From Atractiella rhizophila (taxonomy: Eukaryota), in the NCBI GenBank assembly GCA_021432655.1, contig MU271354.1, positions 1 to 64,000 of the forward strand: a stretch of DNA of 64,000 nt, in the 5' to 3' direction. Below the pieces are notes generated by a model. It ran no database searches. It saw only the letters and a list, made by a program, of their open reading frames with translations, and had not been told where the DNA came from. Position numbers and translations under genes: made by a program. Of this stretch, positions 13,674-16,024 are shown piece by piece. Within the stretch, counting starts at the first letter, position 1; each line of letters opens with the position of its first letter.

Positions 13674-14053
13674 TCGTTGTTTTGGACTTCTTTGAACTCT
13701 AGATACTAATAAGATATGTGACTGTAATGAAAGACTGGGGACAGCGTTGGTGAGCTAAGTAGTGCCTTCGTTGTTCCTACTTGCTGTTGCTAAAGTCGGA
13801 ATTGCTGTCGACCGAATTCCCGACAGTAAGAGCATGCTCAGCAAGCATTCTCAATGGGAAGGTAATGACACTGGACACTCAGAATTGATACGCATCGTAT
13901 ATATTACGAGAGCATAACTATCACACTGAAGAAACGTATAGGTTGAAAAGAAAGCTAGTCCAATCGATCCATGTTTCAATCACGTCGTATCCGGTCCAAG
14001 CCAAACAATACTCAGGAGACTTCTCCTCAACAACCCGTCAGAAAGGAACGTAT

Positions 14054-15176
14054 TTAAAGCTCGAGTCCGATGAGAACATAGTCGGACTGAGACGGAAACT
14101 TGGGGTGGTTGGGAGGCAAGATGGAACCGCCAACATACATGAGCGAGTGAATCAATTCGGCTACACGAATCTTAGGTCAGGTGCCGCTGCAATGCCAGGG
14201 GGAAGGGAGGATAACGCACAGATTCCAGGGAGTCTCTTCTCCAAACAAATAACGACCATGTCACAGCTGAACGCTTCGTCGGCAGCCTCCAACAATCGAA
14301 GGACTTTATCCCTCAGGTCTCCCTTCTCCAAATCCCTTCCGGTAACAACCATTATCTTCTCATCTTCAGTTTCTACTGCAACTCCAGTCCAGGAATCATC
14401 TTCAAAGTTGTCAGTAATGGTCCCGGTCACGACCTTTGAGGACTGTGCGAAAACGGTATGGAGCAGTTCGTCGTCACTGGAAGACGTGGAAACAGAAGAG
14501 CAGGACTCGAGAGAGTGGGAAGATAGAGAAAGAGAATCGATGGAAGAGACGGGAGAGGACGAGGCGAGAATGGGAAAATGAGAGGCGGGATTGGATACCG
14601 GTACGGGGATAGGATCGACGGTATTGGAGATAGGGAAAGTGGCGGAAGAATTGTTGTTACAAATTGAATTATACGAAGGCGGATCGAAAGCAATGGCGAG
14701 GTCGTCTCTTTTCTCGTCTTTGGCAACGAGAGATTCGAGGTCCCCACCGACTTGAAGATCATGGACGCCGCAAAAGATATCACACTCGTTCCCTCTCACA
14801 GAATCGAGTGACCTTCCATCCCCGACCGGGTCTGGAGGGCATTTATCTTTGGCGATGTCAGGACCACCACTTGCCCTTGATTACGAGGGTATTAAAGTGT
14901 TGGCTCCTTCCGTCCTTCGTGGACGTGCCGAGAGGGACAGATTCACTGCCTCCTTCGACGGAGGAAGCAGCGACGGTGGCAGGTACAGGAGCCGCTCCAT
15001 CGAATGCAAGGGTGACCATGCCAACACCGTTGCTGGAGCGCAGACTGTTTCCCAACAAGCCGAAAGTGGTTAGTGGCAAATTTTCCAGACGACCCCCTGG
15101 TGCTCTTTCGTTGTTGCAAAGAGAAAAAAGCGTACCTAGATGGTTCTGTTAACAAAGGATTGGTTATCGACGCCAT
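14054..15176 (-). CDS. OAZ1: Ornithine decarboxylase antizyme, decoded by +1 programmed frameshift (ORF1 75 aa + ORF2)
   Basis: ATG 15176, intron 15135-15045 (GTACGC..CTAAC..CAG), ORF1 ends KGKWWS-TGA at 14858. The +1 frame is open through RDKVLRLLEAADEAFSCDMVVICLEK, intron 14219-14161, then ELIHSLMYVGG...VLIGLEL* (antizyme-domain signatures). Confidence 0.93.
14858..14869 (-). promoter_or_regulatory. +1 ribosomal frameshift site TGG TGG TCC TGA (shift at UCC-UGA)
   Basis: Minus strand reads GGC AAG TGG TGG TCC TGA C. Skipping one base gives GAC ATC GCC AAA..., in frame with the antizyme domain and with no intervening stop. Confidence 0.92.
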
Positions 15177-15377
15177 TGGCAATCAGTTTCGAAATGAATC
15201 TTTGCGACTTGTCGGGAGAGTAGAAACGTTGGTCGTTGAGTTCCAAGGAGAGTCGTCTAGCATCAATTGGCGTCATCAACGCTCATTAAACCTTAACTAA
15301 GGTCCAACTTAGGGTTTTGGCTTTGTGTTTTTTTGACGATTCAACAGGACCGACACTTCTCTTCATTCAGGCACGAG

Positions 15378-16024
15378 ATGGGAACTAAAGTCTATAAGCA
15401 AGGCAAGGTGGGTAGATTCTCAGCTTTCTGTTTGATAGCTGGGCGAATGAGATGCATGTCAGGTCGCCGTCGTTCTTAACGGTCGCTACGCTGGCCGGAA
15501 GGTGGTTGTGATTAGGGGTAACGATGAGGGTACCAGGGAGAAGCGTACGTGCCTCTTTCTAGGTGCAGTTGGGTTGTAGGATTTATGATTGGCGGTGTGG
15601 CCGTTAGGTTACCCTCATGCGCTCGTTGCAGGTGTGGAGAGGTATCCACGAAAAATAACCCGTGGAATGGGTGCTAAACTCGTCGCAAAGAGGTCGAAGA
15701 TCAAGCCCTTCATCAAGGTGCGCTCTCTTAGCTTCACTCTTCCATCTTGCTAAAGTTCAATTTGACAGACCATCAACTACTCCCACCTTCTCCCTACCCG
15801 TTACGCACTCGAACTGGAATCACTCAAAGGCGTCATCACCCAGGAGACTTTCAAGGAGCCATCGCAAAAGGAGGAGAGTAAGAAAGTCATCAAGAAGGCT
15901 TTCGAGGAGAGGTACCTTGCAGGGAAGAACAAGTGGTTCTTCACCAAGCTAAGGGTGCGTCGTCCTTTTTCCCAACCCATGCAGCCGCAAGTAGTGATGG
16001 ATCTTGTGTACTGGGTAGTTTTGA
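15378..16024 (+). CDS. RPL27: 60S ribosomal protein eL27
   Basis: [81 protein letters not shown]. Four introns. Confidence 0.96.

Follow-up and report, generated by a model that had tools for sequence, protein, structure and literature searches.

A two-frame gene lies on the minus strand of the stretch of DNA analysed here, 64,000 nucleotides (nt) of contig MU271354.1 from the root-associated basidiomycete fungus Atractiella rhizophila (Pucciniomycotina, Atractiellomycetes), which we call the window. Its two open reading frames, ORF1 and ORF2, are offset by +1, and ORF2 overlaps the stop codon of ORF1. That antizyme mRNAs sense polyamines through +1 frameshifting has been known for decades. 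We consider it very probable that this gene encodes a Pucciniomycotina antizyme of ornithine decarboxylase (ODC) and that ribosomes express it through a programmed +1 frameshift of the canonical kind. The structure of the gene, the retention of the stop codon in its mRNA, the identity of its domain, the coding signature of the +1 frame and the membership of its frameshift cassette in the basidiomycete family were all observed directly. Coordinates are window positions, and features lie on the minus strand unless marked (+). Citations of PMC1874602 (Ivanov & Atkins 2007), PMC4505036 (Yordanova et al. 2015) and PMC2811004 are to passages of those papers.

Results

ORF1 starts at the ATG 15176-15174. 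Its first coding exon (15136-15176, 41 nt, encoding MASITNPLLTEPS plus two nucleotides) runs up to the GT at 15135, where intron 1 begins (15045-15135, 91 nt, GT..AG, with a branch-like motif CTAAC at 15073-15069). The remainder of ORF1, codons 14-75 (14861-15044), translates to an end of ...NTLVIKGKWWS. With intron 1 removed, ORF1 is exactly 75 codons long with no stop inside, and its C-terminal end, ...SQHFNTLVIKGKWWS, falls at UCC-UGA. The last codon is TCC (14863-14861), the stop is TGA (14860-14858) and the next base is C, so that the string closing ORF1 is UGG-UGG-UCC-UGA-C (14869-14857). An earlier note, made from the letters of this DNA, had described the 91-nt intron, the 75-codon ORF1 and the ...KGKWWS end at TCC-TGA 14863-14858, and every one of these coordinates holds in the sequence.

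The +1 frame is open from stop to stop between 14880 and 14161, and so overlaps the ORF1 stop. Read from the GAC at 14859, the main exon of ORF2 (14220-14859, 213 codons plus one nucleotide) translates as DIAKDK...LLEAADEAFSCDMVVICLEK, or in a longer reading from the same position as DIAKDKCPPD...LLEAADEAFSCDMVVICLEKRLPGI. Intron 2 (14161-14219, 59 nt, GTGCGT..TAG), which the earlier note had not spelled out, separates it from the last coding exon (14054-14160). The reading after this intron begins ELIHSLMYVGG, and the exon as a whole, ...S ELIHSLMYVGGSILPPNHPKFPSQSDYVLIGLEL, ends at the TAA stop 14056-14054. ORF2 is thus 248 stop-free codons long. Its first methionine is residue 170, which lies within the Pfam-matched core, bearing out the earlier claim that the frame is open past the first base of the stop and has no ATG ahead of the core.

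Public sequencing runs were used to ask what the transcript retains. The stretch or part of it is contained in 20 public runs, and four of 24 listed runs were compared with the window: X1, a DNA contig at depth 302, and X3, X5 and X15, which come from three different studies, the last recorded as a metatranscriptome. X1 aligned without a joint over all 1501 bases compared, as a single piece that carries three substitutions. X3, X5 and X15 each have exactly two joints, one between 15044 and 15136 that skips 91 nt and one between 14160 and 14220 that skips 59 nt, which are introns 1 and 2. The TGA at 14858 lies inside an uninterrupted piece in every spliced contig (14220-15044 in X3 and in X5, 14220-14947 in X15), and a search for bases missing or added found none in any of the four runs. 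Because the three spliced contigs span 14858 unbroken and without indels, the UGA stop and the one-base offset are present in the transcript. The same contigs give the minimum extent of the untranslated regions (UTRs). The 5' UTR covers at least 15177-15239 (X3 ends at 15239 and X15 at 15227), and no ATG is present within it. The 3' UTR covers at least 13900-14053, as X3 reaches 13900, the edge of the compared region, with X5 ending at 13962 and X15 at 13986.

Differences among the runs carry a coding signature. Eleven variant rows were recorded, one in the 3' UTR (14018), one in intron 1 (15110) and nine in the ORFs. The sole ORF1 allele, at 14939, is synonymous. Six of the eight strain alleles in the ORF2 frame are synonymous, third-position changes, the nonsynonymous ones being D14N and P91T, so that over both ORFs seven of nine alleles are synonymous. 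Within the ORF2 main exon, five of seven alleles are synonymous in the +1 frame compared with two of seven and none of seven in the other two frames, which hold 5 and 13 stops. Small as these numbers are, the pattern indicates that frame 0 is coding before the stop and the +1 frame after it.

The product of ORF2 belongs to the antizyme family. The Pfam family ODC_AZ (PF02100) has a curated gathering cut-off of 24.2 bits, and a search with this profile, which the earlier note had suggested as a check on its claim of an antizyme domain, scored 29.2 bits (E 9.5e-7) on the ORF2 main exon alone. The last exon extends the match through profile positions 73-98 (13.3 bits, E 0.08). Within the public protein P0004, the spliced ORF2 scored 45.8 bits (E 6.6e-12), matching positions 14-97 of the 114 in the profile. 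The domain occupies 14093-14397 and spans intron 2, these window coordinates being obtained by arithmetic from residues 192-273 of P0004. A profile made from 24 relatives found one solved structure, rat antizyme (1zo0_A, E 0.0077). The ORF1 peptide had no Pfam match at E up to 0.1.

P0004 was the only protein at E up to 1e-3 among the 767 candidates of a word-seeded search of proteins of near length. It is the 285-residue 'hypothetical protein BT69DRAFT_1334732 [Atractiella rhizophila]' of NCBI, and it is identical to the ORF2 of the window across the 213 residues ahead of intron 2. Its N-terminus, MVTLAFDG, corresponds to an internal methionine at 15019, and its junction ...ESVPLGT/ASGGPDIAKDK... 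requires a 49-nt GT..AG 'intron' that we mapped on the sequence to 14924-14876 and whose removal changes the frame by +1. X3, X5 and X15 all pass through 14876-14924 with no joint. In the public model the true N-terminus is missing, and the 49-nt intron is an invention. The earlier note had anticipated that gene callers would truncate such a gene or bridge it with a false intron, and the start at 15019 together with the 49-nt 'intron' is what the public record contains.

The sequence around the ORF1 stop resembles published antizyme shift sites. At the shift site itself (14858-14863) UCC would occupy the P site ahead of the UGA stop, U 14860 would be skipped and GAC (14859-14857) would be read next. 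UCC-UGA is the commonest antizyme shift site and probably the ancestral one, and Table 1 of PMC1874602 lists it for Basidiomycota; human and S. pombe antizymes have conserved the string UGG-UGC-UCC-UGA (PMC1874602). Immediately 5' of its shift codon, the gene of the window has UGG-UGG (14864-14869), an element like the published module A (6-7 conserved nt), an assignment made by comparison with printed strings and not by a statistical test. UGG at codon -2 is found in basidiomycetes other than Agaricomycetes (PMC4505036), and ORF1 of Ustilago maydis ends in QQQSTTLSTVVKWWS, that is, ...VVKWWS (PMC1874602). In Coprinopsis cinerea, complementing module A cuts frameshifting 25- to 38-fold, and efficiency rises with spermidine (PMC4505036).

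Downstream of the stop lies a second putative stimulator. A 17-nt spacer (14841-14857), of a length shared by 70 of 71 related cassettes, ends in AAAU (14844-14841). It is followed by stem-loop 1 (14811-14840, GCC-C-UCCA / UGGA-A-GGU), which has seven pairs, one C.A mismatch and a 14-nt loop, and which appears in the minimum free energy (MFE) fold, in the alignment of relatives and in a covariance-model alignment. Stem-loop 2 (14783-14810, CACUCG-(A)-UUCU and GGAA-CGAGUG around the loop GUGAGAG at 14799-14793) adjoins it without a spacer and is found by the MFE fold and the covariance model. The MFE fold of 14770-14863 contains both adjacent hairpins at -32 kcal/mol. In the covariance-model alignment the window copy has a loop 1 enlarged by 13 bases and, relative to the model, lacks one base in stem 2. 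Allowing for that base, all six lower pairs of stem 2 (CACUCG/CGAGUG) are Watson-Crick, and they differ wholly in sequence from the family consensus, CGUCGG/CCGGCG. The published counterparts have the same architecture: mushroom antizymes have AAAU and then two spacer-less stem-loops, the first beginning 17 nt past the stop (PMC1874602), and AAAU is invariant and abuts stem 1, as are six of the seven bases of loop 2 invariant (PMC4505036). In Pucciniomycotina and Ustilaginomycotina, too, this AAAU and two-hairpin structure is reported, there with a stem 2 that contains bulges and mismatches; in C. cinerea, deleting the 3' structure cuts frameshifting 1.7- to 3.75-fold (PMC4505036).

One of the strain variants falls within this element. 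The G to A change at 14820, which is the D14N of ORF2 and is present in X3 and X15, lies in the enlarged loop 1; the base is unpaired in the MFE fold, and both stems stay intact with the variant.

Relatives of the gene were sought in an exhaustive search of 1.84 billion representative proteins. At E up to 1e-3 it gave 134 proteins; the count fell to 24 at 1e-10 and to the query alone at 1e-30. The best non-self protein had E 1.9e-23 and 39% identity. The closest relatives in public collections are mostly unnamed ORF fragments; ten clusters that were looked up came from Logan and JGI/IMG contigs about 0.9-2.1 kb long, and not one had a name beyond 'hypothetical protein'. In the alignment of 24 proteins, 11 rows cross the junction, five reading ...PD... 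and six ...FD..., and the other 13 begin further downstream. PD and FD are the expected +1 readings of xCC-UGA-C and UUU-UGA-C at the junction.

Scanning metagenome contigs with the alignment gave 152 stretches, 114 of them encoding relatives, and the best 80 were kept as loci. In 71 of these 80, TGA-C, a short spacer, AAAT and then GTGA(G/C)AG stand upstream of the antizyme match. The P-site codon across the 71 loci is TTT in 65, GTT in two, CTT in two and CCC in two, and loop 2 is GUGAGAG in eight and GUGACAG in 63. The distance from stop to stem 1 is 17 nt in 70 of 71, the same as in the window. In 25 uninterrupted loci, an ORF1 of 55-86 codons that opens with ATG precedes a +1 ORF2 of 197-271 codons with an HSLMYVGG-type motif. 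Nine of the 80 loci do not have the strict cassette. Nothing was found for seven of them (L008, L032, L036, L038, L039, L047 and L069); L074 has the cassette with a much shortened stem-loop 1 (about 1446-1540), and L022 has AAAU...GUGAGAG with no TGA-C at the expected distance.

Pairing was tested on 57 sequences, the window and 56 distinct relatives, one of which (L070) is misaligned. The two-hairpin structure is paired in 94.7% of 969 cells. Changes on both sides of a pair occur in 11 of 17 pairs, 10 of 11 in stem 2. None of 500 shuffles reached any of the five measures used, and slid controls paired at 36-52%. RNAalifold recovered the same two hairpins with 16 pairs. A covariance model was then built from 55 of the 56 relatives with the window excluded; L070, which has a 19-nt spacer, was dropped because MAFFT had misaligned it. 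Searched against all 64 kb of the window on both strands at E up to 10, the model gave a single match, 14783-14863, at 44.5 bits over model positions 1-70 of 70. The E value is about 6e-10, on a rough calibration.

Three features of the related loci deserve mention in their own right. Two of them, L045 (shift site near 570) and L072 (near 1408), have CTT-TGA-C as the antizyme shift site; CUU-UGA, the site of bacterial release factor 2 (RF2), is stated in a 2007 survey not to have been found in any natural antizyme gene (PMC1874602). In L020 (from 251) a normal cassette is followed by a +1 frame that closes at 83 codons, perhaps because an intron was retained or through an error. Lastly, 35 of the 71 cassette loci (e.g. 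L025, L027, L046 and L058, about 2000-2012) have TAG or CAG before TGGCG(N)TTTTGAC, and the upstream frame closes within 3-21 codons. This pattern is consistent with the presence, in many Agaricomycete genomes, of an intron whose end lies 9 nt ahead of the shift codon; the gene of the window has no intron there.

Two antisense ORFs, 13889-14581 (+) and 14634-15152 (+), matched nothing in Pfam at E up to 0.1, and we do not regard them as genes. Beside the antizyme gene, another RNA contig of X15 begins at 15362 and covers 15362-15579 (+), running away from the antizyme gene. The plus-strand ORF at 15451-15579 (+) has a weak match to the KOW motif (E 0.0091, below cut-off). A 15-residue stretch of its translation looks like ribosomal protein eL27, in which case the ORF would presumably be a divergently transcribed neighbour of the antizyme gene.

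Discussion

The offset between the two frames could be explained in ways other than a +1 frameshift. If the public model were right, the 49-nt intron 14924-14876 would be spliced out, the frames would be joined without a frameshift and translation would start at Met 15019. The segment does begin with GT and end with AG, its removal restores the frame, and the contigs leave room for a minor isoform. Yet there is no joint in 14876-14924 in any of the three spliced contigs (X3, X5 and X15), from which the real introns have been removed in the same pieces. Such a splice would also delete the conserved ...KWWS end yet leave in place a shift cassette that scores 44.5 bits against a model from other species, and the in-frame stop is kept in 25 related loci where both frames are uninterrupted. 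We therefore give this explanation very little credence. Less credible still is that the assembly is wrong here, or that a recent mutation has inactivated the gene and left a pseudogene. A one-base break in frame is what an indel error would look like, but no indel was found in any of the four runs, including the independent DNA contig at depth 302. The earlier note had named three observations that would overturn its reading, an intron removing the TGA, an assembly indel at the site and an ORF2 that does not match the antizyme profile, and none of the three was made. The break lies exactly at UCC-UGA with conserved elements on its flanks and recurs in 71 of 80 related loci, and the synonymous character of seven of nine strain alleles in both ORFs argues against a pseudogene.

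Two further alternatives concern how ORF2 is reached. Short upstream ORFs regulate several polyamine-pathway mRNAs (PMC2811004), and ORF1 might be another of these, with ORF2 made by reinitiation or from a start that is internal or is not AUG. In ORF2, though, no AUG comes before codon 170, which lies inside the antizyme domain, so an independently initiated product would be truncated. The ORFs also overlap in the manner of antizyme genes, and both the KWWS end and UGG-UGG-UCC-UGA match published antizyme shift sites (PMC1874602, PMC4505036), all of which makes a simple upstream ORF highly improbable. The frames might instead be joined by a -2 slip, which would lead to the same frame with one extra residue at the junction. 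The mammalian UCC-UGA cassette does show more -2 than +1 shifting in S. cerevisiae, but +1 predominates in S. pombe and the natural antizyme cases described in the passages cited here are all +1 (PMC1874602); we regard a -2 slip here as very unlikely.

Several observations weigh against a +1 frameshift with this set of stimulators. The single-sequence fold has z = -1.97, and 7 of 200 shuffles fold equally well. Since that fold alone is weak support, the claim of a structure rests on comparison. The window copy also carries a C.A mismatch in stem 1, and the six lower pairs of its stem 2, which are broken in the family register, hold only with a one-base bulge. The related loci were chosen by a motif expression that fixes the stop, AAAU and the loop; these three are selected for, and the spacing, the stems and the ORF layout are free observations. 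The runs are assembled contigs, which show presence and not absence, and a rare isoform spliced at 14924-14876 may exist. The sample kinds of X3 and X5 are guesses, and we take both as RNA because they carry spliced forms. Finally, the nascent-peptide stimulator of Agaricomycetes, YYYSTTFSGGP(G/E)WRF, is absent from the end of ORF1; outside Agaricomycotina such a stimulator is reported to be lacking (PMC4505036). With no nascent-peptide stimulator and with UCC-UGA in place of UUU-UGA, we do not assign the gene to the Agaricomycete subtype of antizyme.

The slip itself, the response to polyamines and the action on ODC are what the antizyme family would lead one to expect of this gene. Ribosomes would start at the AUG at 15176, translate the 75 codons of ORF1 and pause with UCC (Ser75) in the P site and UGA in the A site. 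Either termination would then release a 75-residue peptide, or U 14860 would be skipped and GAC read. In the latter case a further 248 codons in the +1 frame would yield a protein of 323 residues, with the junction ...KWWS-DIAK... and the antizyme domain at its C-terminus. The slip is probably promoted by the 5' UGG-UGG and by the 3' element, AAAU and two adjacent hairpins starting 17 nt past the stop. By homology, free polyamines would raise the frequency of the slip, and the antizyme would bind ODC monomers and send ODC to the proteasome, closing a negative feedback loop.

The closest known systems are the antizyme mRNAs of Pucciniomycotina and Ustilaginomycotina, from Puccinia, Melampsora, Phakopsora, Sporobolomyces, Microbotryum and Ustilago (PMC4505036, PMC1874602). 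Like that of Ustilago, the window ORF1 ends in ...KWWS (PMC1874602). Judged by eye against the supplement of PMC4505036, the order GAC..., AAAU, GCC-stem and GUGAGAG is shared with Puccinia, Phakopsora, Melampsora, Ustilago and Sporobolomyces, and stem 2 likewise adjoins stem 1; bulges and mismatches in stem 2 are on record for these subphyla (PMC4505036). Unlike these cases, the window has a longer stem 1 (seven pairs and the C.A mismatch), a 14-nt loop and an ORF2 of 248 codons. Its AAAU, again by eye, lies one base nearer the stop than that of Puccinia and in another codon phase (PMC4505036), which argues for conservation at the level of RNA. The name Atractiella does not occur in the main text of PMC4505036 or in its supplement files 2 and 3; its other supplements and figures may hold closer relatives. 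Within the library of papers searched, none pairs 'Atractiella' with 'antizyme', and 'antizyme' and 'Pucciniomycotina' occur together in PMC4505036 only.

The Agaricomycete antizymes, represented by C. cinerea and the 71 metagenome loci, share with the window the two-ORF layout, the 17-nt spacer, AAAU, the stacked hairpins and the 7-nt loop. They differ in the shift codon, which is UCC in the window and UUU in 65 of 71 loci (GUU, CUU and CCC accounting for two each), at codon -2, which is UGG in the window and CGN in the loci, and in loop 2, which is GUGAGAG in the window and mostly GUGACAG in the loci (63 of 71). Further afield, mammalian OAZ1 and the S. pombe antizyme also have UCC-UGA after UGG-UGN, a +1 ORF2 and an ODC_AZ domain (PMC1874602). 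In contrast to these two, the base after the stop in the window is C. The mammalian 3' stimulator is a pseudoknot 3 nt past the stop, whereas the window has two hairpins 17 nt past it, and typical antizyme ORFs are 60 and 160 codons long, as against 75 and 248 here (PMC1874602).

S. cerevisiae OAZ1 is likewise a fungal antizyme gene with a +1 shift at a UGA-C stop. There the shift takes place at GCG (or CCG), a usage linked to the scarcity of tRNA in that lineage, and the passages of PMC1874602 on it describe no 3' element of the basidiomycete type. The bacterial gene prfB, for RF2, offers an analogy only: it too is autoregulated by a +1 shift at an in-frame UGA, aided by a 5' stimulator, but the site is CUU-UGA, the stimulator is Shine-Dalgarno-like, RF2 and not polyamines is sensed, and the protein is unrelated (PMC1874602).

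Three things come together in the Atractiella cassette: the presumed ancestral UCC-UGA with its KWWS end, the two adjacent hairpins of basidiomycetes and, downstream, a ...NECDIFC... stretch (14770-14787). The segment of the window at 14770-14799, with GUGAGAG and ...NECDIFC..., resembles by eye a 27-nt element of Pezizomycotina antizymes (PMC1874602). That element is described as conserved 'without obvious secondary structure' and encodes EECER(L/F)FC (PMC1874602). In it, GUGAGAG is flanked by arms that could pair, GGAAGA and UCUUUY. It is tempting to speculate that, if the likeness reflects homology, stem-loop 2 is one ancient 3' stimulator common to Ascomycota and Basidiomycota, with Atractiella as a bridging form, although we think this rather unlikely. 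If it were true, stem-loop 2 would not be a basidiomycete invention.

The frameshifting device is already in print, including the basidiomycete 3' structure in Pucciniomycotina, which is treated in the passages of PMC4505036 cited above. What is new here is the corrected gene model and an Atractiellomycetes sequence for the comparative set of 3' stimulators. The practical value lies in annotation, as recoded genes are systematically mis-modelled and this gene is an example. For the antizyme family, the Atractiellomycetes sequence contributes a variant of the 3' stimulator in which stem-loop 1 is enlarged and the lower half of stem 2 is fully compensated.

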